A DNA stretch of 64,000 nt from Escherichia coli. GTDB taxonomy: Bacteria; Pseudomonadota; Gammaproteobacteria; Enterobacterales; Enterobacteriaceae. Position numbers and translations under genes: made by a program. Location: assembly GCA_020819635.1 (NCBI GenBank), contig GCA_020819635.1_4533.1, one strand, 5' to 3'. Shown piece after piece: positions 1,852 through 60,051 of this stretch (its first letter is position 1; the number at the start of each line of letters is the position of its first letter). A model generated the notes under the pieces. It did no database searches, was not told where the DNA came from, and saw nothing but the letters and a program-made list of their open reading frames with translations.

Positions 1852-2406
1852 ATGTGGGGTGAAGGAACACCCTGGAAAACACAAGCGGAATTTTATACTT
1901 ATCTTAGGGGATGTTTTAGAAAAGCATGGATGAGACACCCTAATAAAATTAAGGTTATCAATGCAAGGCGTTTTAAAGTTGATCGCGTAGATAAAGACGG
2001 CAATGTAATACTAGATAAGAAAACTGGAAAACCAAAACAAGTTTGGAATTGTGAGTGCGAAATATGTGGACATAGAGGAGGAATGAAAGACTTCCAAGTG
2101 GATCATATTCACGCAGCAAAACAACTTCAATGTTTTGATGATATTCCTCTTTTTGTTTTCCGTTTGATCTATGTGAAAGAAGAAGATTTGCGAATGGTTT
2201 GTAAATTGTGCAACTCTATTCTTGCTTATGCAGACAAGCAAGGCATATCTTTTGAAGAAGCAAAAGCTGAAAAAGAAGCGATAGCTTTGTGTAGAGCTAA
2301 GAAAGATAAAGCATGGCTGAAGAAGCGTAAAATAGAACCTGAAAGCACAGTAGCAAAACGCCGTAAACAAATAGTCAAAATCCTATTGCAGGAAATTGAA
2401 AGTTAG
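1852..2406 (+). CDS. HNH endonuclease, endonuclease VII-like zinc-binding type
   Basis: CECEICGH ... VDHIH ... CKLCNS motif arrangement; start uncertain (ORF opens at TTG 1831, first ATG at 1852). Confidence 0.5.
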   Translation: MWGEGTPWKTQAEFYTYLRGCFRKAWMRHPNKIKVINARRFKVDRVDKDGNVILDKKTGKPKQVWNCECEICGHRGGMKDFQVDHIHAAKQLQCFDDIPLFVFRLIYVKEEDLRMVCKLCNSILAYADKQGISFEEAKAEKEAIALCRAKKDKAWLKKRKIEPESTVAKRRKQIVKILLQEIES

Positions 2407-2442
2407 TATAAGATAACTATACTAAAAGAGAGAGGAGGTTTT

Positions 2443-3051
2443 ATGCAGATAGTATGTGATTGGGATTTAGTTGTGGCTCCGTTAGATGTTGCTTGGTTAG
2501 AATGGTTGAATAAGATTAGTGGCCTTGGTGTTAAAATCGACACATTCACAAAAAATGCAGATTATGATCTTACCAACTATTTTCCTGGTTTCAGGGAAGA
2601 GTTCAACATAGATCCTTACGGATTTCTGGATAATCCTCATCTCTACGATACAATGGGTTTTGTTCCAGGTATGCCAGATTTCTTAAAGTATGTTTCAAGG
2701 AAAGGTAGCAATCTTTTGATCGCGAGTGTGACAAAAGGTGGTCACTTAAGTTCTAAACATAAGCATGTTTTAAGAACATTAGATACGATTGATTTTAGCA
2801 AAGGATCTGGCAACGGCTTTTTTGCTACGAAAGAAAAATACTTATTGCCTTGTGATATAGCAATAGATGACAGGGCTGATAACCTACTATATTTTCCAGA
2901 TGAAGTGGTTAAAATATATTTTAATACGCCTTATAAAGATAACCATCTAGAAGAACTAAAGAAAAAACCAAATGTTGTGATCACAGGTTTAGAAGATCAG
3001 TGGCTAACATGTTTGGATGTTTTTAACACTTTGAACAATTTTAAAAACTAA
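2443..3051 (+). CDS. putative 5'(3')-deoxyribonucleotidase-like HAD hydrolase
   Basis: N-terminal CDWDLVVAP (DxD-like) and C-terminal IAIDDRADN resemble NT5C/HAD motifs; weak. Confidence 0.35.
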   Translation: MQIVCDWDLVVAPLDVAWLEWLNKISGLGVKIDTFTKNADYDLTNYFPGFREEFNIDPYGFLDNPHLYDTMGFVPGMPDFLKYVSRKGSNLLIASVTKGGHLSSKHKHVLRTLDTIDFSKGSGNGFFATKEKYLLPCDIAIDDRADNLLYFPDEVVKIYFNTPYKDNHLEELKKKPNVVITGLEDQWLTCLDVFNTLNNFKN

Positions 3052-3060
3052 GGAGAAAAA

Positions 3061-4059
3061 ATGACAAAACAGATTTCGGCTAGTATTATTGCGCATTCCA
3101 TCACTGAAGACGGAAAAGAGATTGTAACTTTTGAACTAGAATATCCACGTATTATTCATTCAGAATTGATGACTCACCGCCTGTTCAGTCGTAATGCTGC
3201 TTCTAGCCGTGCTATACCTGTTAAAACACTGATTGAAATGGTGCGAAATCAACCTGCTCGTCCTTATCGTTTTGGGGCTAACCAACCTGGTATGCAGGAT
3301 AAAGGTGTTGATCATGACGCTCTTATTGATGCAGGTTATACTGCTCAAGAGTGGTGGGATCTTGCCGCGCTTAGTGCAGCACGTTTTGCAGAAGAATTTT
3401 CTTTGGCAGGGTACCACAAACAAGTTGCAAACCGTCTTCTGGAACCTTTCCAACGAATTAAAACAGTTCTGACAGCAACAGAATATGAAAATTTCTGGTG
3501 GCTACGTGATGACAAAGAAGCCGATCCTACTATCGAAGCTTTGGCTAAAGAGATGCACAAAGAGTATGAAGGATCTACACCAGAAGTGCTGAAACCAGGG
3601 CAATGGCACACACCTTATGTAGACCATTTCTATGATACTATTGGCACAGAAGGTGACGATCATTTTGTTTTTGGTGGATACTACGTTCAAAATGAATCTG
3701 GAGAAGTCGTTGTGCTTACTTTGGAAGAAGCCAAAGCTATTTCAGCTTCGTGTTGTGCACAGGTTAGCTATCGTCGTTTAAATGCAACTAAAGATAAAGC
3801 TTTAGATATCTATGGTCGCTTGCTGACTGGGCGCAAGGTTCATGCTTCTCCGTTTGAACATCAAGCCACTCCAATGCAAGAAACATGCGAACAATATGGA
3901 GAGAACTGTTTTGAAGATTTGTTTATCAATGCTCCTTGGGATTTTAACTCTTGGGAACCAGGTATTACCCATGTAGATCGTAATGGTAAGTTTTGGTCTG
4001 GCAATTTCAAAGGCTGGATTCAACATCGTCAACTTTTAACAAATCATACTAAATGGTGA
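3061..4059 (+). CDS. flavin-dependent thymidylate synthase (ThyX)-like protein, divergent
   Basis: THRLFSRNAASSRA matches the ThyX signature RHR-x7-S...R, but the first Arg is Thr. Confidence 0.5.
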   Translation: MTKQISASIIAHSITEDGKEIVTFELEYPRIIHSELMTHRLFSRNAASSRAIPVKTLIEMVRNQPARPYRFGANQPGMQDKGVDHDALIDAGYTAQEWWDLAALSAARFAEEFSLAGYHKQVANRLLEPFQRIKTVLTATEYENFWWLRDDKEADPTIEALAKEMHKEYEGSTPEVLKPGQWHTPYVDHFYDTIGTEGDDHFVFGGYYVQNESGEVVVLTLEEAKAISASCCAQVSYRRLNATKDKALDIYGRLLTGRKVHASPFEHQATPMQETCEQYGENCFEDLFINAPWDFNSWEPGITHVDRNGKFWSGNFKGWIQHRQLLTNHTKW

Positions 4060-4835: not shown

Positions 4836-7076
4836 TTGATTCGTTTTGTAACTAAATCTAATGGTAAGACAGAGGAGTTTAATCCAGAAAAACTTCGTAA
4901 GTGGTCTGAATTTGCAGCAGGTAAACTAAACTGGTCTGAAATTGAATTAGAAGCTGTGAAGCGGTGTTATGACGGTGTGTCTACACGTGATCTGCATAAA
5001 GCAATGATTGCAGCGTGTATTGACAAGAAAACACAAGCTTACAGTGATATGGCAGGAAGACTTCTTCTGGGTATGATTTACAAACAGGCTCATGGGGGAT
5101 ACCACAGTATCCCTTCACTGAATACCTTTTATCATGATATGGTAGAACGTGGACATTGGGCTAAAATGGATTATACCGATGAAGAGATCAAAGAAATCGG
5201 TAAGATTGTAAAGCATAATAAAAATCTAACTTATGGTTATTCTGTTTTACGTCAGATGGTAGATAAATATCTTATTCGAGATGCAGTAAACGATGTGGTG
5301 CATGAGTCTCCACAGTTTCTTTTCATTGGTATCGCAATGAAGGTTATGGAGATCCAACCAAAAGAACGCCGTATAGAAGATATTAAAAAACTTTATACTT
5401 ATGTTAGCGATCTTAAGATTAATCTGCCATCGCCGTATCTGACAACTCTACGAACTCCAATCAAAGGAAGTGCGTCTTGTTGTTTATTCCGTGCAGACGA
5501 TACGGCAGAGTCTTTAGCCATTGCTAATTACTTAGCTCATGAGTATACGTTGAATAACGCAGGTATTGGTGTTAATCTTCAAACTCGTGCCACAGGTCAA
5601 GGTGTTAAGAATAATCGTATTATTCATGGTGGTCTTCTTCCGTATCTGAAATGGATGGAAGATAGTGTTGGAGCTTCAAAGCAAGCAAGTCGTGGAGGTA
5701 GTGCTACAGTTACCTTTACCATACTTGAACCAGACTTCGACGATCTGATTCGACTGAAGAATCCAACAACACCTATAGATAAACGAGTAGACAAACTGGA
5801 TTATTCTATTGTTGTTAACCGTTCGTTCTTGCGTCGAGCAGCTAAAAACGAAGACTGGATGTTAGTTAGTTGTGATGATGCTCCTGAACTTTATGAAGCT
5901 TTGTATAAAAGTGAAGAAGAGTTTGATGCAGTTTATGACAAAGTAAGCCGACGTCGCATTAAGAAAAAATTCGTCAAGGCTCGTGATCTTCTTACAGAGA
6001 TTATTGTTCAACGTGCAGAAACAGGACGTATTTACATGTTCTTTGCTGACAACGTTAACAACCATACACCTTTCTTGGATACGGTGTATCAATCAAACCT
6101 GTGTCAAGAGATCTTCTTACCAACTAAAGCTTTCCACAGTATGCCGGATCTCTTTACTGGTGAAAATACAGAAGATCAAGAATTGGCTTTATGTTTCTTA
6201 TCTTCTATTGTTGCTGGTCGTGTATTACCTGAAGAATATGAGGATGTTGCATACTACACTGTATTGACAATTGACAACGTTATTGAAACAATGGATTATC
6301 CATTTAAACATAACGAAATAACTGCTAAAGCACGTAGATCTATTGGTGTAGGCATTACAAACTTAGCACATTACTTGGCAAGTAATTTTGTAAATTATTC
6401 AGATGATTATGCTAAAAAATTAATGCATGAACTTGCAGAACGTCATTACTTTTGGTTGGCAAAAGCCTCTTTGCGTCTGGCTAAGGAAAAAGGTAATGCA
6501 GAATGGATCGATAAGACCAAATGGCCTCAAGGTTGGCTACCAATTGACACCTATGCTAAAGCAGTAGATAGTGTCGGTAACTTTGATCTTAAAATGGACT
6601 GGGAAGGTTTACGTGCTGAAATCATTGAACAAGGTGGTATCCGTAATAGTGTCTTGGCTGCTATTGCACCTAATGAGTCCAGCAGTTTGGTAAGCAATAC
6701 TACTAACTCTCTGTACCCTGTTCGTGATACTATTATGTATAAACAAAGTCAGAAAGGTAGTGTATTATTTATTGTTCCAGACTACGAAAAACTGAAAATG
6801 TTCTACCAATCCGCCTGGGATACTCCGGCTAAAGATCTTGCAGAAATGTATGGTATCTTTACCAAGTTTACGGACCAAGGAATTTCTTGTGATTCTTGGC
6901 TAGATTATTCTAAATTGGTAGGTGGACGTTTATCAGTGAAAGCCGAGATGCAGTTTATTCTGAATTTTGCTAGATTGGGTGGCAAGTCATTGTATTACCT
7001 TAATAGTAGAACAAAATCAGCAGATTCTTTAGCACAAGAAGATTCTGATGGTGGTTGTGAAGCTTGCAAGATGTGA
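4836..7076 (+). CDS. nrdA: ribonucleotide reductase class I large subunit
   Basis: N-terminal ATP-cone-like region, active-site SNLCQEIFLP, C-terminal CEACKM cysteine pair; TTG start with GGGAGGAG RBS. Confidence 0.9.
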   Translation: MIRFVTKSNGKTEEFNPEKLRKWSEFAAGKLNWSEIELEAVKRCYDGVSTRDLHKAMIAACIDKKTQAYSDMAGRLLLGMIYKQAHGGYHSIPSLNTFYHDMVERGHWAKMDYTDEEIKEIGKIVKHNKNLTYGYSVLRQMVDKYLIRDAVNDVVHESPQFLFIGIAMKVMEIQPKERRIEDIKKLYTYVSDLKINLPSPYLTTLRTPIKGSASCCLFRADDTAESLAIANYLAHEYTLNNAGIGVNLQTRATGQGVKNNRIIHGGLLPYLKWMEDSVGASKQASRGGSATVTFTILEPDFDDLIRLKNPTTPIDKRVDKLDYSIVVNRSFLRRAAKNEDWMLVSCDDAPELYEALYKSEEEFDAVYDKVSRRRIKKKFVKARDLLTEIIVQRAETGRIYMFFADNVNNHTPFLDTVYQSNLCQEIFLPTKAFHSMPDLFTGENTEDQELALCFLSSIVAGRVLPEEYEDVAYYTVLTIDNVIETMDYPFKHNEITAKARRSIGVGITNLAHYLASNFVNYSDDYAKKLMHELAERHYFWLAKASLRLAKEKGNAEWIDKTKWPQGWLPIDTYAKAVDSVGNFDLKMDWEGLRAEIIEQGGIRNSVLAAIAPNESSSLVSNTTNSLYPVRDTIMYKQSQKGSVLFIVPDYEKLKMFYQSAWDTPAKDLAEMYGIFTKFTDQGISCDSWLDYSKLVGGRLSVKAEMQFILNFARLGGKSLYYLNSRTKSADSLAQEDSDGGCEACKM

Positions 7077-7084
7077 TGAAACTA

Positions 7085-7104
7085 GGGGCTTCGGCCCCTT
7101 TTTA
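7085..7104 (+). terminator. intrinsic terminator with UUCG tetraloop
   Basis: GGGGC-TTCG-GCCCC followed by TTTTT. Confidence 0.6.
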
Positions 7105-7120: not shown

Positions 7121-8209
7121 ATGGCAGCAATTAATTTACACAATGAAGTTTACAAAACAGGAAAATATCCAGTATTTTTAGGGGAACAATTAGGGATTTT
7201 TGATTCTGTTAACGTAACTTATCCAGAGATGCACAAACTCTACAAACTTCAAAAAGCACAAGATTGGGATGAGAATGAAGTCAATCTGGATCAGACACGT
7301 AAAGATTTCGTAGCTTGTTCTAAAAACAATTATGATGTTATGATTAAAAACTTATCGTTCCAATGGGAAAATGATTCTCTTGCAAAATCAATCATCACTT
7401 TGTTCTCTCCATTCTTGAGTAACAATGAAGCCTGTGCTATGATGATGAAGCAGAGTGAAATGGAAGTTCTCCATGCGTTAACGTATTCTGAAATAATCCG
7501 TCAATGTACTCCAGATCCAATCGAAGTCATCAATCAGATTATGATTAATGATAAAATTTTCAATCGTATGGGTATCATTGCTGATATCATGGGTCAGTTG
7601 GAAGAAGCTGGTCATAAGTATGCTCTAGGATTGATTGAAGCTAACGATGAACTTCGACTGCTGATTCTTAAAGGGATGGTAGCCCTGATTGGATTAGAAG
7701 GTATTCAGTTTATATCTTCCTTCTCTGCTACTTTTGCTATGGCAGAACAACAACTGTTTGTTGGGGCTTGTAAACTGATCCAGAAAATTATGCTAGATGA
7801 AATCTTGCATGTTAAGATGGATTATGCTGTAATTGATGCATTGATGCATGACCCAATTTGGCGTAAAATTTACGAAGACAATATTGAAGAGTTGACTTTG
7901 ATCCTCGACACTGTTGTTGAACAAGAGGAACAGTGGTGTGACTACCTGTTTAGTGAAGGTCGTTTTATTGTAGGTCTTAACGCCGAATTGTCTAAACAGT
8001 GGGTTTATTTCAATGCTGCTCCTATTTATCGTCGATTGAAAATGAAAGCCAAGTTTAAAGCACCTAAACATAGCCCTTTAGCTTGGATGGAAAAATGGTT
8101 GAATCCTGATTTGATTCAGTCAGCAGCCCAAGAGATTCAGTTAACTAACTACAAATTGAATTCAGCTAACAAAGATCTCTCTGATGATGAGGAGCTTGAC
8201 TTCGAATGA
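7121..8209 (+). CDS. nrdB: ribonucleotide reductase class I small subunit
   Basis: Iron-ligand ExxH motif (SEMEVLHALTYSE); acidic C-terminal tail DDEELDFE typical of R2. Confidence 0.85.
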   Translation: MAAINLHNEVYKTGKYPVFLGEQLGIFDSVNVTYPEMHKLYKLQKAQDWDENEVNLDQTRKDFVACSKNNYDVMIKNLSFQWENDSLAKSIITLFSPFLSNNEACAMMMKQSEMEVLHALTYSEIIRQCTPDPIEVINQIMINDKIFNRMGIIADIMGQLEEAGHKYALGLIEANDELRLLILKGMVALIGLEGIQFISSFSATFAMAEQQLFVGACKLIQKIMLDEILHVKMDYAVIDALMHDPIWRKIYEDNIEELTLILDTVVEQEEQWCDYLFSEGRFIVGLNAELSKQWVYFNAAPIYRRLKMKAKFKAPKHSPLAWMEKWLNPDLIQSAAQEIQLTNYKLNSANKDLSDDEELDFE

Positions 8210-8710: not shown

Positions 8711-9037
8711 ATGGGTATTGATATCGAATGGCGTATGTTACAGGGTGCACCTTTTAATAAGTGGGAAGAGGCTGTAGGAGAAGATCCTAGAATTGAAGAA
8801 GAATTTGACGGAGATTTTAACTGGTTCTTACAAGAAGGTCTTGACTTAAGCCGCATCTCTCCTTTCTACGATGCGGATGAGTCTTATTGCATATATGGCC
8901 TTGATTTAGAAGGCGGAGAAGGAAGCATAGCTGTAGATCTTGAGCAATTGAATGAGAATGCAAAAGAAGCCTATGCAAAGCTACTTGAAAAATATAACAT
9001 TAAAACGGAAACTATTATTTCTCAACATGTCTGGTAA
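8711..9037 (+). CDS. hypothetical protein
   Basis: 108-aa ORF. Confidence 0.45.
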   Translation: MGIDIEWRMLQGAPFNKWEEAVGEDPRIEEEFDGDFNWFLQEGLDLSRISPFYDADESYCIYGLDLEGGEGSIAVDLEQLNENAKEAYAKLLEKYNIKTETIISQHVW

Positions 9038-9046
9038 GGAGAACTG

Positions 9047-10039
9047 ATGCGCTATCTGGTAACAGGTGGTCTTGGTTTTATTGGGAGTGCCGTGGTGCGC
9101 TCTCTTTGTCAAGATCCCAATAACGAAGTTTTTGTCGTTGATAAGATGGGCTATGCAGCAGATATTGAGAATGTAGGCGATATCACTCACGTTAAACTAA
9201 GCATAACAGATTTGGCAAACGAAACCCAGGTCAAAAGTTTAGTAGTAGAGTGCAATCCCGATTTCATCATTCACTTAGCGGCAGAGAGTCATGTGGATAA
9301 TTCTATCAAGAATCCACGAGTTTTCATCGACTCCAATATTATTGGTACATACAATTTATTGGAAGCTGCAAGGCTCCTCCCAAAAAATAAACTTAAGATG
9401 TTCGTACATGTCTCCACAGACGAAGTGTACGGCGATATGGCAGACTCTGGCGTTCCCTTTACCGAAGAGACAGCTTATGCCCCTTCAAGCCCGTACAGTG
9501 CGTCTAAGGCAGCATCTGACCATCTTGTGAAAGCTTGGTACCGTACCTACGGTTTACCTGTTGTGATAACCAACTGCTCCAATAACTTTGGACCTTATCA
9601 ACATCCAGAAAAGCTGATCCCAAAAATCATCACAAGTATCTTGACGAATAAAGAGATTCCGGTGTATGGTAAAGGCGATCAGGTGCGAGACTGGCTTTTT
9701 GTTGAGGATCATGCGCGAGCTATTCTTCAAGTGGCAACAGGTGGAGAACCAGGTCAAACGTATAATGTTGGAACACGTAATCCCAAAACCAATATGGAGA
9801 TCATCTATATGGTTTGTGACTACATGGATGCTGTACATCCAGAAGCAGGAACCTACCCTTCTTCCAACTTGATAACTTTTGTTGAAGATCGTAAAGGACA
9901 TGACTTGCGTTATGAAATCAATCCTTCTAAAATAGAGTCTGAACTGGGTTGGAGTGCAAACTCTACATTTGAACAAGATCTCTACTCAACGATTGAATGG
10001 TACTTAAACAACCCTCAATGGTGGAGTAAGAAGATTTAA
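9047..10039 (+). CDS. rmlB: dTDP-glucose 4,6-dehydratase
   Basis: N-terminal Rossmann motif [10 protein letters not shown]; family-typical [24 protein letters not shown]. Confidence 0.9.
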
Positions 10040-10047
10040 GGAGGGTT

Positions 10048-10926
10048 ATGAAAGGTATTATTTTGGCGGGAGGAAGTGGAACCCGCCTTCATCCGGTAAC
10101 ACGCAGTGTGAGCAAGCAATTGCTCCCTGTGTATGACAAACCCATGATCTACTACCCCTTATCGGTATTGATGTTGGCTGACATTAAGGATATCTTAATC
10201 ATCACCACACCAGGCGATCAGGAAGACTTTGAGCATCTTCTTGGAGATGGGTCTATGTTTGGGATAAAACTCACTTACGCAATCCAATCCGAGCCACGAG
10301 GTCTTGCGGACGCTTTCATCATCGGTAAAGATTTTATCGGAGAAGACTCTGTTGCTCTTATTTTAGGTGACAACCTATTCTTCGGACAAAGCTTTGGTAA
10401 ACTACTGATTAACGCTAGTGAGATGGTAGATGTTTGGGGCGGAGCTTGTATCTTCGGGTGTTTGGTGAAAGATCCTGAACGATTCGGTGTGGTTGAATTT
10501 GGGAGTAATCGTCAAGTTATTTCTATTGAAGAGAAACCTGAAAATCCTAAATCAGATTATGCTGTCACAGGTTTGTATTTCTATGATAACTCTGTTATTC
10601 AACGTGCATTAGAAGTAACCCCTTCCGCGCGTGGAGAACTGGAGATCACCGATATCAATCGCAGCTACCTCGAAGACAGGAAGTTACAAGTAGAAGTTCT
10701 CGGACGAGGATTTACTTGGCTTGACACAGGAACACACGCCAGTCTGATGGAAGCTGGTCAATTCGTGCAGACTATTGAGAACTGTCAAGGATTGAAGATT
10801 GCGTGCCTGGAAGAAATTGCTTTCAAAAAAGGGTGGATTTCTTTAGAGACTTTGGTCTACCATGGAAACTCACTGAAGAAAACAGAGTACGGGCAATACC
10901 TACTCAAATTAGCGGAGGGAAAATGA
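10048..10926 (+). CDS. rmlA: glucose-1-phosphate thymidylyltransferase
   Basis: [18 protein letters not shown] nucleotidyltransferase signature. Confidence 0.9.
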
Positions 10927-11489
10927 AAGTAGAAAAAACAAAAATTGAAGGTGCGGTAATTATCAAACCAGACGTTTATAAAGATGACCGTGGTTTCTTT
11001 TTAGAAACATATAATGAACAAAAATACGAAGATATCATTGGTAGACAAACTTTCGTTCAAGATAACATGTCTAAATCAAACTTCGGTGTTTTGCGAGGAA
11101 TGCACTTTCAAACAAATAATCCGCAAGGTAAGCTTGTTCGTTGTGTAAGTGGGGAAGTATTGGATTTCGCTGTAGACCTACGTAAAGATAGTCCTACTTA
11201 CGGTGCTTGGGACGGTGTTGTTCTTCGTGCACGACACCATACACAGTTCTGGCTTCCACCTGGTTTGGCACATGGTTTTATAGTGTTGAGTATGGATGCT
11301 ATCTTCGAATACAAATGCACAACTCCATACGACCCTTCCAGCGAACAAAGTTTACGTTGGGATGATCCTGATATAGGGATTGATTGGGGCTTCGATATGA
11401 TTTTTGACGAAGATTTTAAACCTATCTTATCAACAAAAGATGCAATGGCTAAGTCTTTTCAACAGCTACGTAGCGAGGGTGTATGCTAA
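10923..11489 (+). CDS. rmlC: dTDP-4-dehydrorhamnose 3,5-epimerase
   Basis: ATGA overlap with rmlA; cupin-type RmlC sequence (GMHFQ...); ORF-table start at 10803 is upstream extension. Confidence 0.85.
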
Positions 11490-12325
11490 CATATCTGGTA
11501 TTGGGTGGTAATGGACAACTGGGACAAGCTTTACGTAAAGTGGCTCCTTCAAATGTGTCTTTAATTTATCCTAAAGAACGTGTAGATATTACAAATTTTG
11601 AAGCTGTGCGAAACGCTATTATTGAAGATTATGTAGATGGTGTTATTAATTGCGCTGCTTATACGGCTGTAGATAAAGCAGAACATGATTTTGCTACTGC
11701 TTTGGCTGTTAATGCCTATGGCCCTGCAAATATTGCGGCAGTGTGCAGCAAACTTAAAATTGATTTTGTGCATATTTCTACAGACTATATTTTTAATTAT
11801 TCTCATCCTATTTTTGAAGATACTACACCTAACCCGATAAACAATTATGGGTATACGAAAGAACTCGGTGAAAAAATGGTGCGAGGAGTTAACCCGAACG
11901 CATATATTATTCGAACAGCGTCTGTATATAGTGAATTTGGAAATAACTTTCTAAAAACTATGTTGTCTCGCTATAATGATGGACAACGTGATTTTACTAT
12001 CGTTGCAGATCAGTTCTCTTGTCCAACATATGCCCCAGATTTAGCAGAAGCTATTTTTGAAGTATTAAAAACAGGTTGGTCAAGATCTGTAAAGACTTAC
12101 CATTTTGCAGGAAGCCATCTTATTTCTTGGGCGGAGTTTGCGGAAAAGATCTTGACACAGATGCCAGAACCTGTTAAGATATCGGCGGTATCAGCTTCAA
12201 CCTATAATGCTCCAGCAGCACGTCCGGTGAAGTCACAACTAGTAACCAGTCACTATCTTACAAAATCAGATTTAAATAAAGGTATTGAACGGTCTTTAGC
12301 AGTATTACTTAATAAGGAGAGGTAA
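11483..12325 (+). CDS. rmlD: dTDP-4-dehydrorhamnose reductase
   Basis: N-terminal LVLGGNGQLG Rossmann motif; position after rmlC. Confidence 0.85.
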   Translation: MLTYLVLGGNGQLGQALRKVAPSNVSLIYPKERVDITNFEAVRNAIIEDYVDGVINCAAYTAVDKAEHDFATALAVNAYGPANIAAVCSKLKIDFVHISTDYIFNYSHPIFEDTTPNPINNYGYTKELGEKMVRGVNPNAYIIRTASVYSEFGNNFLKTMLSRYNDGQRDFTIVADQFSCPTYAPDLAEAIFEVLKTGWSRSVKTYHFAGSHLISWAEFAEKILTQMPEPVKISAVSASTYNAPAARPVKSQLVTSHYLTKSDLNKGIERSLAVLLNKER

Positions 12326-12585
12326 TGGAATTTGTAATTTTTGGTAAACCTAACTGTCAATTTTGCGAAATGTCAAAACAACTATTAACCATGCGCAATA
12401 AACAGTTTGAATATTTAAGTCTTGACCAAGACTACGATTTAGAATCAATGACTAAAACAGTTGTTGATCTTACCGGAGTTCCTCCACGCACATTTCCACA
12501 AATTTTGTCTGAAGTGAACGGGGAGGTAACATACGTAGGCGGTTTTACCGAACTGCGTGATCTCATGGCTCAAATTGCGGAGTAA
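12325..12585 (+). CDS. glutaredoxin/NrdH-like redoxin
   Basis: 86 aa with CQFC active site; context next to RNR genes. Confidence 0.65.
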   Translation: MEFVIFGKPNCQFCEMSKQLLTMRNKQFEYLSLDQDYDLESMTKTVVDLTGVPPRTFPQILSEVNGEVTYVGGFTELRDLMAQIAE

Positions 12586-12747: not shown

Positions 12748-13248
12748 ATGGCTAAAGTAGTAGATGAGTTTGATATGCTACGAGTCGATGAAGGACTGAA
12801 GCTTACTGTTTATCAAGACCATCTTGGTTATTGGACAGTCGGCATAGGACACCTTCTGACTAAAATAAAAGATAAAGCAAAGGCTATTCAAATCTTAGAT
12901 ACTCTTCTTGGTCGTAAGACTAATGGAGTTATCACAGAAAAAGAAGCCCGTCAAATCTTTGCTGACGATGTTGCAAAAGTGAAGAGAGACATAAAAAACA
13001 GTACTATCTTATCACCAATCTATGATAAGGTTAGTGATACTCGTAAATTGGGAATAATCAACATGGTTTTCCAGTTGGGGTTAAAAGGTGCTGAAGGGTT
13101 TCAAAATAGCTTGACTTTAATCAGCAATGCATATTATACTCAAGCAGGTAAAAACATGCGTAAAAGCCGATGGTATAGCCAGACGCCAAACCGTGCTGAA
13201 CGAGTAATTAAAGTTCTGACTTCTGGAACTTTAGATGCTTACAACTAA
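12748..13248 (+). CDS. T4-type lysozyme (glycoside hydrolase family 24 endolysin)
   Basis: EFDMLRVDEGLKLTVYQDHLGYWTVGIGHLL closely matches the T4 e lysozyme N-terminus. Confidence 0.85.
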   Translation: MAKVVDEFDMLRVDEGLKLTVYQDHLGYWTVGIGHLLTKIKDKAKAIQILDTLLGRKTNGVITEKEARQIFADDVAKVKRDIKNSTILSPIYDKVSDTRKLGIINMVFQLGLKGAEGFQNSLTLISNAYYTQAGKNMRKSRWYSQTPNRAERVIKVLTSGTLDAYN

Positions 13249-13252
13249 TAAA

Positions 13253-13270
13253 GGGGCTTCGGCCCCTTCT
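13253..13270 (+). terminator. intrinsic terminator with UUCG tetraloop
   Basis: GGGGC-TTCG-GCCCC then TTCT. Confidence 0.5.
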
Positions 13271-13285
13271 AAAAGGAGTGCTACT

Positions 13286-14044
13286 ATGGGAAATAAAACC
13301 GCAGCTAAAACACAACGGCAGAAACTGGCTAATTCAGCAAAGATTGAAAGCCGTTATGCAGCAAAAGCGGTAGGTAATGACGATTACCGTTTAGATGAAT
13401 TTATGCCTGAAGGGGACCAAAATAAGATTGTTCAAAGCATGATTTGGAATGATCTGACTGTTGTAAATGCTCCGGCAGGGACTGGTAAAACCTCTGTTGC
13501 TTTATGGAAAGCTTTGCAGATGCTTCGTTCAGGAGACTTCCGTAAACTACTTTTTATCAAGAACCCTACTGAAGTCGGAGATGACCAGATTGGTTTCTTG
13601 TCTGGGGATAAAACAGATAAACTAGCAGCACACTATGAATCTACAAAACGTATTTTCCAGCAATTCATGACAGCCAACAAATTGGAAAACGATATTGGAT
13701 CAGGTAAGATCGAATTGAATATTCCTAACTATTTGTTGGGGGCTACCCTGGATAATACAATCGTCATTATTGACGAAGCACAACTTATGTCAACAGAAAC
13801 ACTTAAACTTCTTATTGAACGTGCAGGTATTAATACGCATGTTATTGTATTAGGCGATGTTCGCCAGACATATGCAATTAAAAAACGTAGCAATGGTCTG
13901 CATCAAATTTTGGAACTTTTATATCCAGAAAATGAAGAAGGTGTTCGTGAGCCAATTGTAGATTTTATTGGATACGTTGAACTGACAACGGACGATAATA
14001 AACGTGGACGTTTGTCTAAACTGATTACTGAAGTGTTTATTTAA
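13286..14044 (+). CDS. phoH: PhoH-like ATPase
   Basis: Walker A NAPAGTGKTS and IIDEAQLMS; start set at ATG after AAAAGGAG. Confidence 0.85.
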   Translation: MGNKTAAKTQRQKLANSAKIESRYAAKAVGNDDYRLDEFMPEGDQNKIVQSMIWNDLTVVNAPAGTGKTSVALWKALQMLRSGDFRKLLFIKNPTEVGDDQIGFLSGDKTDKLAAHYESTKRIFQQFMTANKLENDIGSGKIELNIPNYLLGATLDNTIVIIDEAQLMSTETLKLLIERAGINTHVIVLGDVRQTYAIKKRSNGLHQILELLYPENEEGVREPIVDFIGYVELTTDDNKRGRLSKLITEVFI

Positions 14045-15277: not shown

Positions 15278-15299
15278 TGCCCCTTCGGGGGCATTTCTT
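15278..15299 (+). terminator. intrinsic terminator
   Basis: TGCCCC-TTCG-GGGGCA followed by TTTCTT. Confidence 0.55.
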
Positions 15300-21330: not shown

Positions 21331-22272
21331 ATGGTGTTAATTGGTAGCCGTGCATTGCAAATTCATGCTATGGACATGGGAAAAGACTTGTATCGCCCTT
21401 GTGTAGATTTAGATTACCTGTGTACAGAACAAGAGTGGGAAGAATTATCAAAAATGTTCTCTCAAGAGGAGTTTGTTGAACTTGTAGAACGTAAAGGAAA
21501 CAAAGGCCATGTCAAAATGATAGCTGGTGCACATTTGGAATACGATATTGCTTCTCAAGGAGATAGCACAGAAGCTTTGATTAGTTATTGTGAAGATTCT
21601 GATGATGTTCGTCGAACTTACGCTGGACATGTTGTTGCTCCTTTAGATGTGCTCTACCTTCTTAAAATGAGTCATCGTTTTAAAAAGGATAGTCCTCACT
21701 TCTTTAAAACTATGAAAGATATTCATTTCATGCGGTCACTGGGCGCAAAGATCCCAGAAAATCTTAAGAGTATTTATGAGTTGCGTGAGAAAGAAACATA
21801 CACTTACTCTCATCCGAACTTAAACGTAAAAAGTAAAGACTTTTTTAAAGGTGATGAGGTTCCGTATGTTTATGATCATGATTCTATCCATGAAGCAATC
21901 GCGGTAATGGATGCTCCGGCATATAAATCTTATATGAAAGATGGAAGTGAAGTTATGACCAGCAAAGAAAAGTTTTTTGCTCAACCAAAACATGTGCGCC
22001 TGTTAGGTGTTTATGAAGAAGCGTGTGTTTTGGCTTTGGAACGTTCACAAATTCCTTTCGGTGGAGAGATCGGAGGTCCAACCCCTAAGCAAAGTTTTAT
22101 AATGGCTTTATCTAAAGTCTGCACATCCATCACTAGTGGTTGGTTTAGGGAATATGCTTGGGAAAACTTTTATGTTGTTATTAAGCTATATGAAAACATG
22201 GGCGAAAACGACTATGTTGAACGTTTTAAAGCTAATCAACATGTAGTAAAGCCTTTTGAAGGAGGTTATTAA
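21331..22272 (+). CDS. hypothetical protein, possible nucleotidyltransferase-like N-terminus
   Basis: 313 aa; LIGSRAL...DLD loosely resembles a Pol-beta-type GS...DxD motif; weak. Confidence 0.45.
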   Translation: MVLIGSRALQIHAMDMGKDLYRPCVDLDYLCTEQEWEELSKMFSQEEFVELVERKGNKGHVKMIAGAHLEYDIASQGDSTEALISYCEDSDDVRRTYAGHVVAPLDVLYLLKMSHRFKKDSPHFFKTMKDIHFMRSLGAKIPENLKSIYELREKETYTYSHPNLNVKSKDFFKGDEVPYVYDHDSIHEAIAVMDAPAYKSYMKDGSEVMTSKEKFFAQPKHVRLLGVYEEACVLALERSQIPFGGEIGGPTPKQSFIMALSKVCTSITSGWFREYAWENFYVVIKLYENMGENDYVERFKANQHVVKPFEGGY

Positions 22273-24056: not shown

Positions 24057-24542
24057 ATGTTTCAAGTAAATGTCAATGTGCATAATAGTTACTCTGATTG
24101 TGAAACGTGTGGCTATAATTCATCTAATGTTATTCGTATTAGTGGCGATTTAGGAGAAGCTTCTTTTGGAGAAGAAGCAAGTTGCTTTAGTGGTATGGAT
24201 GCAGAATGGAATGATATTGCACATTGGTTAGTGAGCAAACTAAAAGAAAAAGAGAAACCATTTCCTACTCTGCTTGATCGTTCTCTTGTGGAAGATGCAG
24301 GTAAAGCATATGCAGACTATGCGTATGCAGACGGGAAATATTTGGAAGATGATAAGGCTAACCATTTGCTTTATGTTTACTATGAAGCTGAATCTGCCTA
24401 CGATAATTATTACAGCATGTCTAACATCCTACGTCTGTTTGCAGAGTTTGATATTTATTTCGAAGTAGAATTTTCAGAAGATGATACTTACGAGTACAAT
24501 TCTTATGATCCATTTGAGGAGGAAGAATGCCAAGACGAGTGA
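24057..24542 (+). CDS. hypothetical acidic protein
   Basis: 161-aa ORF, D/E/Y-rich. Confidence 0.45.
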   Translation: MFQVNVNVHNSYSDCETCGYNSSNVIRISGDLGEASFGEEASCFSGMDAEWNDIAHWLVSKLKEKEKPFPTLLDRSLVEDAGKAYADYAYADGKYLEDDKANHLLYVYYEAESAYDNYYSMSNILRLFAEFDIYFEVEFSEDDTYEYNSYDPFEEEECQDE

Positions 24543-25342
24543 TTTTTGTAAGCGGTGCAGGTTTAAGTGCAGACAGTGGGATTCGAACATTTAGAACAGA
24601 CACAGATAGTGGTCGTGCTTTATGGGAAGAATATGATTTAGAAGAGGTCTGCGATATTGGAGCTTTCCAAGCAGGTTATCGTGTTAGAACATCTCCAGAT
24701 CTTCCAGTGGTCGGTGGTGTAGACGAGAACGGTATGGATTTGTATGCCAAAACACACGAATTTTATAACAAAAGACGTGTTGAGCTTAAAGATGTACAAC
24801 CTAATGCTGCACATATTCAAATAGCAAAGTGGTTTAAGGAATATCCTAACCAAATAGTAAACTTGACAACAAACGTTGATGATCTACTAGAGCGAGCAGG
24901 TGTAGACAGAGATTCTGTTATTCACGTACACGGATATCTTCCTGAAGTAGTTTACCGTATGCATCCTGGAGATTACAAAACACTGGTAGATATTGGTTAC
25001 AATAGTATAAACATAGATGATTATAACTGGGTGAAGCCTAATGTTGTATTTTTTGGTGAGGCTGCACCTTTGTATGCAGATATGGCTCACTTGTTCGATA
25101 CTTTGACCATGCAAGATTTGGTTGTAGTAGTAGGATGTTCAAACCAAGTTATCAATTTTAATTGGGAATTATTTCCTGCACTTAGTATGGGTACAAAAAT
25201 GGTTGTAGTTAACCCTGGAGTTAATTACGAAGAAACACTTCTCTATGAAGATCGTGGAGTTTTTGTTTACCGAGAAAAAGCTGCAACAGCCTTCAGCAAT
25301 GAAGGTTTCATTAAAATGGTCGAAGACCACTTAAACAAATAA
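24527..25342 (+). CDS. Sir2-family (sirtuin-like) NAD-dependent protein, lacking zinc ribbon
   Basis: GAGLSADSGIRTFR, TTNVDDLLERAG, HVHG, VVFFGE motifs match the Sir2/CobB catalytic core; no CxxC...CxxC zinc module. Confidence 0.75.
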   Translation: MPRRVIFVSGAGLSADSGIRTFRTDTDSGRALWEEYDLEEVCDIGAFQAGYRVRTSPDLPVVGGVDENGMDLYAKTHEFYNKRRVELKDVQPNAAHIQIAKWFKEYPNQIVNLTTNVDDLLERAGVDRDSVIHVHGYLPEVVYRMHPGDYKTLVDIGYNSINIDDYNWVKPNVVFFGEAAPLYADMAHLFDTLTMQDLVVVVGCSNQVINFNWELFPALSMGTKMVVVNPGVNYEETLLYEDRGVFVYREKAATAFSNEGFIKMVEDHLNK

Positions 25343-25351
25343 ACCACTCAA

Positions 25352-25373
25352 GGGGCTTCGGCCCCTTTCTTAT
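25352..25373 (+). terminator. intrinsic terminator with UUCG tetraloop
   Basis: GGGGC-TTCG-GCCCC followed by TTTCTTATT. Confidence 0.6.
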
Positions 25374-25385
25374 TAGGAGAATAAA

Positions 25386-25658
25386 ATGACTGAAGAAATC
25401 CGTGATTACTACCTTGCACATTACGTTTACTACTTTGCCAATGCTACACAAAAAGGGGAAGGTAATCTTTACTTGGCAACAGGACATGGAACAGGCGTTA
25501 GGAAATCAAATATTGATAATGCCTTGGCTCAAGTGGCTGCGGGGCTAGAAGATAAACTTCAAACACCTGTAGTTGTAGTGATGCAAAATATAAGTTACCT
25601 AGCAAGTTGTACTGAAACCGAATTTAACGCGTCTGAGACGCAATCTAACGAAGAATAA
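25386..25658 (+). CDS. hypothetical protein
   Basis: 90-aa ORF, last plus-strand gene of block. Confidence 0.45.
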   Translation: MTEEIRDYYLAHYVYYFANATQKGEGNLYLATGHGTGVRKSNIDNALAQVAAGLEDKLQTPVVVVMQNISYLASCTETEFNASETQSNEE

Positions 25659-25662
25659 AACA

Positions 25663-25695
25663 AAGGCACCCACTTGGGTGCCTTTTCTATTTTAG
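25663..25695. terminator. bidirectional intrinsic terminator at convergent block boundary
   Basis: GGCACCCA-cttg-GGTGCC flanked by A-run upstream and T-run downstream. Confidence 0.6.
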
Positions 25696-25727
25696 AGCGT
25701 CTCTGTTCGATTTAGGTGGGTTCTAGC

Positions 25728-25958
25728 TTACTTGTGTAGTGCTCTCTCGTATAACTCAATGATCAATTCATCCTCTACTGTAATACGCGCCATTTGATCC
25801 GTCTTAAGTATTGTTGGTTGGTAGTGGTGCATTTCACTATTGATACTACAATCCCATTCGTCATAACCTAAATACTCTCCTACATGGACCTTAACCATAA
25901 AGGGAAACGGGTTATCTACCAAAAATGCCATACAACCTTCTTCGATTTTATTTAACAC
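25728..25958 (-). CDS. hypothetical protein
   Basis: 76-aa ORF. Confidence 0.4.
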   Translation of the reverse strand: MLNKIEEGCMAFLVDNPFPFMVKVHVGEYLGYDEWDCSINSEMHHYQPTILKTDQMARITVEDELIIELYERALHK

Positions 25959-25987
25959 ATGACCTCCTATTACTACAGATATGAAAA

Positions 25988-26007
25988 AACCCGCCGAAGC
26001 GGGTTCT
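25988..26007 (-). terminator. intrinsic terminator
   Basis: minus strand AACCCGC-TTCG-GCGGGTT followed by TTTTTT. Confidence 0.55.
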
Positions 26008-26049
26008 ATTGCTACGATAGGATCACTATCCTATAGTATTGTTTCTGTG

Positions 26050-26331
26050 TCAAGCCTTAGCGTAGAAAAACTTCTCATATTCAGATTTTGTTACGATTGT
26101 GGGGCAACCTTTTGTTCCATCCTCGATAACAGGGGCTTCTACCATTCTGGTGTTGAATAAGCAATAAGTTCCACGCATGTAAATACCCAGTTTTGTTTCT
26201 ACGATGTGCTCTTTACTTACGCTTGAAAACTTAATCTCACCATCAGAGTCTCTTATAGCAATAAGTGCATGTTCGGGCCAATCTTTTCCTTTTGCTCCTA
26301 AAGCATTATACAATTCTTGAACGAGTTCCAT
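26050..26331 (-). CDS. hypothetical protein
   Basis: 93-aa ORF. Confidence 0.45.
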   Translation of the reverse strand: MELVQELYNALGAKGKDWPEHALIAIRDSDGEIKFSSVSKEHIVETKLGIYMRGTYCLFNTRMVEAPVIEDGTKGCPTIVTKSEYEKFFYAKA

Positions 26332-26343
26332 ATGACCTCCTTA

Positions 26344-26517
26344 TTAAATAACAAATTTTTCTTCTTCTGGCTTATCGTAATCTGGAGAATAAACATGTGC
26401 GGGATTAAAACCTTTAAAATTTCCGCGACCTTTACGTGGACAGTTGAATGTGCGAGCTTGATGATCCCCAAAAGATTTCCCACAATGCATACATTTAAAA
26501 TCAGTGCGTTTAGTCAT
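26344..26517 (-). CDS. small zinc-finger protein
   Basis: MTKRTDFKCMHCGK...FNCPRKG; AAGGAG RBS. Confidence 0.45.
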   Translation of the reverse strand: MTKRTDFKCMHCGKSFGDHQARTFNCPRKGRGNFKGFNPAHVYSPDYDKPEEEKFVI

Positions 26518-26570
26518 GCCATATCTCCTTTTAAAAGGCTGCACCTATTGAAGATGCAGCTTTGATAGAT

Positions 26571-26672
26571 TATTTAGATGAGTCTAAAATGTCTTTTACT
26601 TTTGCCGTGATAACGTCTTGATATTTGTTAATAAGATAGCCTACAACTACACCTACGATAAATGAAACCATT
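26571..26672 (-). CDS. small hydrophobic peptide (33 aa)
   Basis: MVSFIVGVVVGYLINK after GGAGAAATA RBS; below ORF-table size cutoff. Confidence 0.3.
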
Positions 26673-26680
26673 ATTTCTCC

Positions 26681-27289
26681 TTATTTAAGTGGTGAGAGAA
26701 CAATCTCTCGGTTTTTTAAGAACCAAAGCATGTCATCTTGATCATAGTCTGATCCCTCTGTAGTAGAATTTTTGATAGAATCAAAAAACCAACGAGGTAT
26801 ACCAAAACAACTTCCAGATGACTGCATGTCTTTCTGCGACATTTTAAATGTGATTGGAAAATCACAATTATCAATCTCTCGGATATCTGCTGAAGATAAG
26901 ATTGTAACTTCAACCAGTTCGTCGTTAGATGTAGTATCGTTGTCTTCCTGAATAATGTCAAATGCTTTTTGCACATCTTTTGCATCTAATGTTAAACCTG
27001 TGGCTTTCTGAAAAGCCGAAACAAAAATTAGAGCTTCTTCAGAGCAAGGGGCTTCCAGCAAATGAGCCATAATAGGTGACAAGCAAATGTTAAGATCTTT
27101 GTCATACCAACGAACAATCCACACAGGCGTTGCTCCGTTTTGTTTGTCACGAGCCAAAATTGTAACGTGCTGGCCTTCTTCTGGTATATGATACAAACCA
27201 GAAAAACCAGGACCTGTAGTAGATTTTTTGACACGTGCTACGTGTCCAACTTCTAAAGGATCTTTACCATCCCAAATCTTCTCTTCCAT
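26681..27289 (-). CDS. hypothetical protein
   Basis: 202-aa ORF. Confidence 0.5.
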   Translation of the reverse strand: MEEKIWDGKDPLEVGHVARVKKSTTGPGFSGLYHIPEEGQHVTILARDKQNGATPVWIVRWYDKDLNICLSPIMAHLLEAPCSEEALIFVSAFQKATGLTLDAKDVQKAFDIIQEDNDTTSNDELVEVTILSSADIREIDNCDFPITFKMSQKDMQSSGSCFGIPRWFFDSIKNSTTEGSDYDQDDMLWFLKNREIVLSPLK

Positions 27290-57026: not shown

Positions 57027-57369
57027 AAACTGCGTCTGCGTCGATGAGTTTGTGTTTGTTGTTCCGCATGTAGTCTAAGATAAGTAGACGTTTATTGTAT
57101 CTGGAGAGATTATGACCCTCTTTTCCGCCATAGTCAAAATATTTTGCAAGATCTTTACACTCAAACAAAATCAGTTCGGGAGTTTCTTCACACTGGTCTG
57201 TCTGGTACACTTGACGAATGATCATGTATACATCGTCGTCTTCCGCTAAATGCTCTACTGGTCCACATCCAGCAGGAACAAATTCATAGTCCCATCTGAT
57301 CAGATGTTTCTCTACTGCTTCAAAGAAGTCCATTCTTTCGTTGCGCATAATTTGAACGTCAACTAACAT
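57004..57369 (-). CDS. hypothetical protein
   Basis: 121-aa ORF. Confidence 0.45.
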   Translation of the reverse strand: MLVDVQIMRNERMDFFEAVEKHLIRWDYEFVPAGCGPVEHLAEDDDVYMIIRQVYQTDQCEETPELILFECKDLAKYFDYGGKEGHNLSRYNKRLLILDYMRNNKHKLIDADAVYGYWWMD

Positions 57370-58823: not shown

Positions 58824-58911
58824 ACCTCCCCCTTTAGCTATTAGTGCGAGCCTACAACAAAAGAATAACTAAAATCCCTCCATAACAAATGCCCCTTGCG
58901 GGGCATCTTTA

Positions 58912-60051
58912 TTAGAACACGCTACCAAGTGTAGTGGAACGTTGTGTTACAGGCTCCAGCACCACTCGCAAAGTGTTTCCTGGTGTAGTGCTCATAACCA
59001 GAATCTTACCACCTTCAATCAGATCACAAGTTAGACCATCAGCCGTTGCACATAGATCAATATGTGGATCACCATCTTCATCCAGGATAACATAACTGTT
59101 GGTTTCCATTGCTTCCACTTCATCATCTTTCAAACTTTGTAGATAGATGTTCAGGGAACAAGCGCCCGACAAAAACTTAGTAGGGGTGAAGTCGTGCCAG
59201 TTATTGATCCAATTCACCTTCAAGGTTTTGCCATTAGCTACGATAGAAGCCACATTCCATTTAGCATCGTTCCCTAAAGAAATACCCATCATTTCAAGAC
59301 ATTCTTTAAAAGTCATTTTTGGATAGAAATTCAATTCTTCTACAATGCCTTGAATAACATCGAAAGACAACTCTGTGCTAACATCCCATAAACGTTGGAA
59401 GTTATCTACGTGCTTTTTATTTACCAAGTTCTTATCCAAGTAATCTAACATAGTTTCACTAGACAGTTTATCGTAATTGAAACTGTAGTAGATACGACTA
59501 GGACGGTTTACAAAATATTCCGAGATATAACCACTATTTTTAGTGAGGATGTAAAGTTTATTCCCACTTCCTGTTCCATCCAACAAGGTCAACAGTGCTT
59601 CCTGATCTTCTTTCTTAGCGTACACTTTATCAAATTCGTCAAATAAAACAACAGCACGATCTGTAATTTTACTCATAAATTCTAAGAAGCCAGCATCTGT
59701 GTAAGGCTGTGTAACCAAAATGGTTGGAATACCTAAACCTTCTGTGGACATTAGAGACATGCTAATTAGTTTAGCTAACATCGTCTTACCACTGCCTTTT
59801 GTCCCTGTCAGTAACACCCCAGTATTTTTACCTTCTTTACTACGACGAGCAAATGTTTTAATAACATGTGCGGCGCGATCTTTAGTTTCCCCATAAAGAG
59901 TGTTCGGAAGAGAGAAACTTTCACCACGCACTAAAGAGTAGTTACCGTGCGGATCGCAGTTGACAACCCAAACTCCAGCAGGAAGTTTATTAGCTTCAAC
60001 GCCATATTCCTTATTTACAACAGCTACATCTCCAAAAATAGTGTATTTCAT
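58912..60051 (-). CDS. AAA+/P-loop ATPase
   Basis: Walker A GTKGSGKT and Walker B VVLFDEFD. Confidence 0.6.
   Translation of the reverse strand: MKYTIFGDVAVVNKEYGVEANKLPAGVWVVNCDPHGNYSLVRGESFSLPNTLYGETKDRAAHVIKTFARRSKEGKNTGVLLTGTKGSGKTMLAKLISMSLMSTEGLGIPTILVTQPYTDAGFLEFMSKITDRAVVLFDEFDKVYAKKEDQEALLTLLDGTGSGNKLYILTKNSGYISEYFVNRPSRIYYSFNYDKLSSETMLDYLDKNLVNKKHVDNFQRLWDVSTELSFDVIQGIVEELNFYPKMTFKECLEMMGISLGNDAKWNVASIVANGKTLKVNWINNWHDFTPTKFLSGACSLNIYLQSLKDDEVEAMETNSYVILDEDGDPHIDLCATADGLTCDLIEGGKILVMSTTPGNTLRVVLEPVTQRSTTLGSVF

Follow-up and report, generated by a model that had tools for sequence, protein, structure and literature searches.

A complete dTDP-L-rhamnose operon in a Phapecoctavirus genome and candidate glycosyltransferases for its product

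The rml operon and its place among known phages

A stretch of 64,000 nt (hereafter the window; contig GCA_020819635.1_4533.1 of the Escherichia coli assembly GCA_020819635.1) carries at positions 9047-12325 four genes, rmlB, rmlA, rmlC and rmlD, for the synthesis of dTDP-L-rhamnose from glucose-1-phosphate and dTTP. The genes, each identified from its open reading frame (ORF) and from NCBIfam and Pfam matches, are:

9047-10039, plus strand: rmlB, dTDP-glucose 4,6-dehydratase, 330 aa
10048-10926, plus strand: rmlA, glucose-1-phosphate thymidylyltransferase, 292 aa
10923-11489, plus strand: rmlC, dTDP-4-dehydrorhamnose 3,5-epimerase, 188 aa
11483-12325, plus strand: rmlD, dTDP-4-dehydrorhamnose reductase, 280 aa

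The window is a Phapecoctavirus (phAPEC8-like) genome. Its rml stretch is 100% identical to that of Escherichia phage vB_EcoM_3A1_SA_NWU and 97-99.9% identical to those of dozens of Phapecoctavirus genomes (phAPEC8, ESCO5/13 and Schickermooser among them) in which the rml enzymes are annotated; identity to phi92-like phages, where the copy in phi92 is gp64-67, is ~66% at the nucleotide level. The window itself is 98.96% identical to Schickermooser over window positions 1-33774, and maps to Schickermooser 44111 down to 1 and then to the end region of that record down to 128937. The operon does not differ from those deposited for Stephanstirmvirinae (phAPEC8, ESCO5/13, Schickermooser, phi92), the group to which the window belongs.

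The presence of the pathway in these phages is already known, having been annotated and remarked on in two papers. Olsen et al. (2020) reported a complete dTDP-rhamnose pathway in phapecoctaviruses and phi92-like phages, described its location as peculiar and raised DNA glycosylation as a speculative role (PMC7552041). Maffei et al. (2021) pointed out the exceptional susceptibility of such phages to restriction-modification, “despite a putative dTDP glycosylation machinery” (PMC8594841). Our search of the literature on rhamnose or glycosyltransferases (GTs) in phi92, phAPEC8 and Stephanstirmvirinae phages returned annotation-level remarks only. New here are the finding that rmlC-rmlD is the constant core of the operon, the identification of a GT cluster, and the occurrence of homologues of these GT genes within virion gene blocks of other phages.

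Enzyme identity, catalytic residues and selection

Identity was assigned where a protein scored above the curated NCBIfam equivalog cut-off, and Pfam was searched as well. All four proteins pass: RmlB (TIGR01181, 429.9 bits vs. a cut-off of 365.1), RmlA (TIGR01207, 461 vs. 360.7), RmlC (TIGR01221, 225.4 vs. 155.8) and, by a narrow margin, RmlD (TIGR01214, 238.8 vs. 224.1); the Pfam families agree with the NCBIfam calls in each case. The start of rmlC was taken as the ATG at 10923, while the mechanical ORF list opens at an upstream GTG (10803). The original prediction described four tightly coupled genes with ATGA overlaps. The compact, same-strand packing is borne out, and an ATGA overlap occurs at the rmlA/rmlC junction only; rmlB and rmlA are separated by an 8-nt spacer containing GGAGG, rmlC and rmlD overlap by 7 nt (ATGCTAA), and the rmlD stop overlaps the start of the following glutaredoxin gene (grx) by 1 nt (TAATG).

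Loss of catalytic residues had been named in that prediction as an observation that would count against it. On alignment to solved structures every residue checked is kept in all four proteins. RmlB, whose best solved relative is the Salmonella enterica enzyme 1g1a (E 7e-111), has the NAD-binding motif G7-G-L-G-F-I-G13, and its T124-D125-E126 and Y150/K154 align to T133-D134-E135 and Y167/K171 of 1g1a. In RmlA, aligned to its best solved relative 4ho0 (E 8e-124), G8-G-S-G-T-R-L14, K23-Q24, D108, K163 and D226 are present. H61, K70, Y130 and D173 of RmlC correspond to His63, Lys73, Tyr133 and Asp170 of S. enterica RmlC (1dzr), and RmlD (best solved relatives 3sc6 and 1vl0) retains G8-x-x-G11-x-x-G15, T100 and Y122/K126.

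Pairwise ratios of nonsynonymous to synonymous substitution rates (dN/dS), calculated between the window genes and those of phAPEC8, ESCO37 and phiWec179, lie between 0.01 and 0.19 for all four rml genes (rmlB, 0.04-0.11; rmlA, 0.03-0.11; rmlC, 0.01-0.19; rmlD, 0.06-0.14). In ESCO37, from which rmlB and rmlA are absent, the values for rmlC and rmlD are still 0.02-0.06. Purifying selection acts on all four genes. Judged by family membership and conserved residues, the complete rmlB-rmlA-rmlC-rmlD pathway that had been predicted within a nucleotide-metabolism module is real and intact, and we infer with high confidence that the operon makes dTDP-L-rhamnose.

An old operon with a constant rmlC-rmlD core

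The gene order NT5C-like, ThyX-like, NrdA, NrdB, h108 (a 108-aa protein), RmlB, RmlA, RmlC, RmlD, glutaredoxin, lysozyme, PhoH, h167 and HslV recurs on IMG/VR contigs that encode an RmlD and a NrdA only 42% and 73% identical, respectively, to those of the window. RmlD homologues with more than 50% identity lie on contigs of ~110-157 kb (where the longest contig is informative), while the closest cellular RmlD homologues are ~40-43% identical. The h108 gene stays beside rml even where identity falls to 46% and, in genomes that lack rmlB-rmlA, stands immediately before rmlC, and the glutaredoxin gene adjoins rmlD in all relatives examined. The clade of RmlD proteins on contigs of ~150 kb, the distance to cellular homologues and the synteny that persists at 42% identity thus mark rmlD as an old phage gene; by these sequence comparisons the operon is a vertically kept part of the phage lineage, with no recent capture from an enterobacterial host.

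Not all members carry the whole operon. ESCO37, iGC_PHA_EC001, ABPW7, WPEC1/2, ECO340P2, dw-ec, SF1-1 and others match only positions 1868-3279 of the rml query, i.e., rmlC and rmlD; the absence of rmlB-rmlA in such isolates was remarked on previously (PMC10269720). In ESCO37 rmlC directly follows the 108-aa gene, and in Klebsiella phage KP13-26, which is distantly related within the subfamily, the order is nrdB-h-h108-rmlC-rmlD-grx, again with rmlB-rmlA absent, while one IMG/VR locus (L097) is missing rmlB alone. Both rmlC and rmlD are present in every relative examined.

The two halves of the operon also differ in history. Against phiWec179 (L110), the rmlB-rmlA products are 94-97% identical (dS, the synonymous rate, 0.56-0.70) and those of rmlC-rmlD 63-65% (dS 1.5-2.0). 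The same mosaic is seen when phiWec179 and locus L094 are taken together (RmlB/RmlA, 92-97%; RmlC/RmlD, 63-66%). The breakpoint falls at the rmlA/rmlC junction, and the pattern suggests that recombination carries the rmlB-rmlA pair from one of these phages to another.

For the synthesis of enterobacterial common antigen (ECA), all Enterobacterales produce dTDP-4-keto-6-deoxyglucose through RffH and RffG, while RmlC and RmlD are confined to strains with rhamnose-containing glycans, so that many hosts are without the last two steps. Complementation by host RffH/RffG is therefore a likely explanation for a constant rmlC-rmlD core: because hosts supply the precursor, yet do not universally have RmlC-RmlD, selection would keep the ability to finish dTDP-L-rhamnose. 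The same pattern argues against a pure dTTP sink, since RmlA is the dispensable part, and against simple depletion of the precursor, since most members add the enzymes that refill it.

Three details concern individual records. The rml sequences of PV191315.1 (P3322) and OR352955.1 (AV125) match the 3279-nt query over 3278 nt, and the rmlD annotation of P3322 is split in two, suggesting an indel of one base, whether a sequencing error or a frameshift. A second rmlA/rmlB pair (ESCO5_00182/183, listed separately in PMC10269720) was considered and rejected, as these are the same genes with locus tags reversed in the current record.

A glycosyltransferase cluster outside the window

The original prediction had seen no rhamnosyltransferase in the window and proposed a search of the remaining genome. 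Within the window, tblastn with the four GTs of the phage found no homologue, and ten of its larger unannotated ORFs, scanned against Pfam, contained no glycosyltransferase domain. Elsewhere the search was successful, with a cluster of four GT genes located ~70 kb away in closely related complete genomes. In Schickermooser (MK373788) these four consecutive genes, here designated GT190 to GT193, occupy positions 103701-106845, between a helicase-primase gene and a block of small genes. GT190 and GT191 are GT-B type (GT4-like) paralogues that are 41% identical (phrog_7162, weak Pfam Glyco_trans_1 matches); GT192 is of the GT-A (GT2-like) type with a DDD motif (phrog_2456). GT193 (phrog_14179) matches no Pfam family and, from its D-T-D (DxD-like) motif, is probably a second GT-A-like protein.

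Deposited phage records with the cluster number 134-140. The matches listed belong to phAPEC8-like and phi92-like phages and their Klebsiella relatives, and are otherwise weak (~26% identity) matches to an uncultured phage and a Streptomyces phage. Cluster and rml operon occur together on two metagenomic contigs of 153 kb and 141 kb; on the latter GT191 is 55% and RmlD 42% identical.

Four records that match the operon or the GT cluster carry Campylobacter or Acinetobacter phage labels, with identities at the level of E. coli Stephanstirmvirinae: 96.6-98.8% for MG065650.1 and OP562383.1 (Phapecoctavirus level) and 66-69% for MG065656.1 and MG065645.1 (phi92-like level). The host labels of all four look doubtful. 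Near the GT cluster, at ~108-118 kb of MK373788 (L002 8169-18054), TerD, vWA-TerF-like, TelA, TerC, PRTase and HAD-phosphatase domains are annotated. This block recalls the Ter-associated neighbourhoods for “nucleoside-like metabolites” that Anantharaman, Iyer and Aravind are said to have predicted.

Homologues of the glycosyltransferase module in other phages and prophages

GT191-like genes were confirmed on at least 565 stretches in IMG/VR. Among 31 moderately related loci, 28 have an adjacent GT192-like gene and 19 also a GT193-like gene. The surroundings of this module repeatedly involve virion genes. The GT192-like/GT191-like pair of Pseudomonas prophages is flanked by the genes for the holin and the small terminase subunit, and in an Enterobacter prophage the module comes just before terminase. 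Eight IMG/VR loci (L024-L029, L036, L038) share one HK97-like siphophage order, namely terminase, portal, prohead protease, major capsid protein, GT192-like, GT191-like, GT193-like, head-tail connector, tail tube and tape measure. One representative of this arrangement is:

L029, 8839-10915: three-gene module homologous to GT192/GT191/GT193, between HK97-type major capsid and head-tail connector genes

In addition, a Burkholderia dolosa contig (L092, 3025-8440) encodes a 411-aa GT191 homologue whose gene follows one for an invasin/intimin-type adhesin and a 571-aa gene of unknown function, an arrangement reminiscent of adhesin-glycosyltransferase pairs. Because homologues of the module sit in or beside virion morphogenesis and adhesin contexts, a protein acceptor, possibly a virion protein, would be favoured, if only indirectly for this phage, and the GT192/GT191/GT193 module in capsid-connector position may be an unrecognised virion-glycosylation cassette.

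Direct adjacency of rml genes and the GT module is rare, since only one of 79 IMG/VR loci has an rml-type gene, for an RmlB-like dehydratase, within 10 kb of the module. In this locus (L017), and likewise in the Enterobacter prophage (E. huaxiensis), a gene for an RmlB-like 4,6-dehydratase (TDE, YxxxK) lies between the GT193-like and GT192-like genes. The GT module is linked to 6-deoxyhexose metabolism through an RmlB-like gene in these two contexts.

Genomic neighbourhood

The flanks described originally, nrdAB upstream and a glutaredoxin/lysozyme/phoH cluster downstream, agree with coordinates and annotation. The nrd assignments rest on the ORFs, the annotation of the 98.96% identical record and synteny; the hairpins come from a consensus scan.

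4836-7076, plus strand: nrdA, class Ia ribonucleotide reductase
7084-7099, plus strand: terminator-like hairpin between nrdA and nrdB
7121-8209, plus strand: nrdB, class Ia ribonucleotide reductase
8711-9037, plus strand: h108, 108-aa protein of phrog_15453 (unknown function), directly 5' of rmlB
12325-12585, plus strand: glutaredoxin/thioredoxin-fold gene, phrog_22 (thioredoxin domain), its start overlapping the rmlD stop
12748-13248: lysozyme gene, downstream of the glutaredoxin gene
13235-14044: phoH, downstream of the lysozyme gene
15278-15293, plus strand: next strong terminator-like hairpin on the same strand

A terminator is annotated in the Schickermooser record at the place that matches the 7084-7099 hairpin. 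Because the two hairpins bracket the region from nrdB to the hslV-like gene, the arrangement suggests a single transcription unit running from nrdB through rml, grx, lysozyme and phoH to that gene.

Upstream of nrdA, at 2443-4059, lie genes for an NT5C-like 5'-nucleotidase (202 aa, Pfam E 9e-6) and a 332-aa ThyX-type protein, the latter with a partial Pfam Thy1 match (E 5e-8, residues 22-174) and a strong match to phrog_85. This pair is kept in all relatives examined, and apart from the ThyX-type gene no thymidylate-synthase-like gene was found in the genome. Further away, a 313-aa protein encoded at 21331-22272 combines DUF7277 and DUF7275 (E 7.5e-76), and near it, at 24527-25342, is an ORF whose counterpart in a related record is annotated as a SIR2-like NAD-dependent deacetylase. 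Both the orientation of the genes and the GC skew flip at ~25000-27000 (skew positive to ~26 kb and negative beyond), in agreement with the divergent transcription point annotated in a related genome. On the minus strand at 57363-60051, five CapR-homology repeats (Pfam PF21817, E 1e-28) occur in a 485-aa protein, and next to its gene lies a 379-aa ORF whose positional counterpart in a related record is annotated as a putative AAA ATPase.

Possible roles of dTDP-L-rhamnose

The explanation that best accommodates these observations is that, during infection, RmlA, RmlB, RmlC and RmlD would in turn convert glucose-1-phosphate and dTTP to dTDP-L-rhamnose, which would serve as donor substrate for the phage's own GTs (two GT-B and two GT-A enzymes encoded beside helicase and DNA polymerase genes). 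RmlC-RmlD would be the indispensable part of the pathway, with RmlA and RmlB serving optionally to raise flux. We regard it as probable that the GT cluster uses this product, and we lean towards the combined proposal of a working pathway that supplies a donor to the phage GTs, with the acceptor left open. Among acceptors, a protein (possibly a virion component) would rank first, a host envelope glycan second and bulk DNA last. Glycosylation of virion or other proteins is put forward tentatively, from the gene contexts of the module homologues. A broader version, in which operon and cluster together build a rhamnose-containing glycan on phage proteins and the GT module is a widespread virion-glycosylation cassette, is no less speculative.

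Several points weigh against this explanation. Glycans go unmentioned in a cryo-EM paper on phi92 from 2026, which is weak evidence against heavy glycosylation of the virion. The GTs could use UDP-sugars, with rhamnose going elsewhere. In this phage group the GT cluster adjoins replication genes, away from the structural genes, and co-occurrence of rml and GT genes among cultured phages reflects one lineage and is weak as independent evidence. GT192 has a faint match to TAGT (E 1e-3) and one to the T-even beta-glucosyl-HMC (hydroxymethylcytosine) alpha-glucosyltransferase (E 5e-6), over ~40 residues. Comparison of predicted structures was tried as a guide to the acceptor and abandoned: both GT models are confident, yet their matches are generic GT4 and GT2 enzymes in which all acceptor classes are represented, and the GT192 model rests on a shallow alignment (14 homologous proteins).

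Those GT192 matches bear on DNA hypermodification, in which the phage GTs would place rhamnose on a hydroxylated or hydroxymethylated base and so evade restriction, as T4 does with glucose and RB69 with arabinose. This role, proposed by Olsen et al. (2020; PMC7552041), would suit the position of the rml genes in a nucleotide-metabolism module and of the GT cluster beside helicase, Dam-like methylase and DNA polymerase genes, and has precedents in RB69 and DLP3, where phage sugar-nucleotide pathways feed DNA glycosylation (PMC13326640). The characterised systems, however, all start with a ThyA-superfamily hydroxymethylase or hydroxylase (PMC13326640), whereas only a ThyX-type enzyme is annotated or detected in this phage. 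A tblastn search with E. coli ThyA against Schickermooser 1-150000 (of 151,194 bp) gave no genuine match, with the proviso that very distant homologues could escape it; a marginal match (E 0.014) was discarded as spurious, lying on the non-coding strand with four stop codons. No TET/JBP dioxygenase turned up in general annotation and domain scans, none of them a search aimed at TET/JBP. The phi92-like sister phages, whose genomes carry counterparts of both the rml and the GT genes, are reported to be sensitive to restriction in vivo (PMC8594841), and small temperate phages with the GT module show no ThyA-type enzyme in the flanks seen. With no ThyA-type hydroxylase found and restriction-sensitive sisters, sugar supply for DNA glycosylation is the least supported of the three roles raised originally, and we consider it unlikely. 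Remodelling of the host envelope, by transfer of rhamnose units onto an undecaprenyl-phosphate-linked or lipopolysaccharide-core acceptor, could exclude superinfecting phages or protect progeny from debris, and GT4/GT2 enzymes that use dTDP-rhamnose are the classical O-antigen and core transferases. Strictly lytic phages would nevertheless have little time to replace existing outer-membrane glycan; neither rml nor the GT cluster has an annotated flippase, polymerase, ligase or membrane-spanning partner nearby, and temperate relatives carry the module in a late morphogenesis operon rather than at a lysogenic-conversion locus. An envelope role is thus improbable, if less so than DNA modification.

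The end product itself would be unimportant if RmlC-RmlD served to drain dTDP-4-keto-6-deoxyglucose from ECA synthesis, or RmlA to buffer dTTP. Such metabolic diversion draws on the operon's location among genes for dNTP supply and on the fact that the conserved RmlC-RmlD core acts on a branch-point intermediate shared with dTDP-Fuc4NAc synthesis. It is hard to reconcile with the addition, in most members, of RmlA and RmlB, which refill the very pool being drained, and a dTTP sink contradicts the investment of the neighbouring ThyX and Nrd genes in dTTP supply. Diversion also leaves the conserved GT cluster unexplained, and the NGR glycan has since replaced ECA as the assigned wecB-dependent receptor of phi92-like phages. 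The suggested drawing on the dTTP pool, in particular, fails to explain why rmlC-rmlD, rather than rmlA, is invariant, and we regard diversion as very unlikely. Equally remote is the notion that these are passenger genes dispensable throughout the infection cycle. Viable isolates do lack rmlB and rmlA, and many isolates were propagated on K-12 strains (host fields of the records), but all four rml genes are under strong purifying selection, position and catalytic residues are kept across relatives diverged to 42% identity, and rmlC and rmlD are never missing in the relatives examined.

With their broad host range, phapecoctaviruses and phi92-like phages are candidate agents for phage therapy of pathogenic E. 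coli. Humans do not make rhamnose, and natural antibodies against it are common; if a virion or host component does carry rhamnose, immune recognition, stability and host range would be affected. To our knowledge, virion glycosylation has been shown experimentally only in mycobacteriophages, so that glycosylation of phage proteins would, if rhamnose donation to a protein holds true, extend beyond that group. The rmlC-rmlD core and the identified GT cluster make an old annotation curiosity experimentally testable.

Comparison with known systems

The bacterial rfb/rml operons of Salmonella enterica, E. coli and Pseudomonas aeruginosa encode enzymes of the same four families, alike in catalytic residues and in predicted chemistry, and are likewise tightly packed in one transcriptional direction. 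The phage operon differs in its B-A-C-D order, in having no adjacent transferase, flippase or polymerase, and in lying amid ribonucleotide reductase, thymidylate synthase and glutaredoxin genes, outside any O-antigen or capsule locus.

Phage DNA glycosylation systems also combine a sugar-nucleotide pathway with several GTs among nucleotide-metabolism and replication genes. They differ from the system described here, in which no ThyA-family hydroxylase or hydroxymethylase was found and whose phi92-like sisters are reported to be restriction-sensitive. We know of no DNA modification that uses a dTDP-6-deoxyhexose donor. The systems compared are those of glucosyl-hydroxymethylcytosine (glucosyl-hmC) in T4 and of arabinosyl-5-hydroxycytosine in RB69 and DLP3, the latter made with a phage-encoded UDP-arabinose pathway (PMC13326640).

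Experiments on Che8 and related mycobacteriophages demonstrated glycans on proteins of the capsid and tail (Freeman et al. 2023, as cited in PMC11256854). Phage GTs are proposed to decorate the virion proteins there, and homologues of the GT module studied here lie in capsid/tail blocks of other phages. The GTs of this phage are encoded outside the structural module. Among giant viruses, Mimivirus makes UDP-L-rhamnose and chloroviruses glycosylate their capsid, with the viruses' own GTs acting on virion proteins. Those viruses use the eukaryote-type two-enzyme route to UDP-rhamnose, whereas this phage encodes the bacterial four-enzyme route to dTDP-rhamnose.

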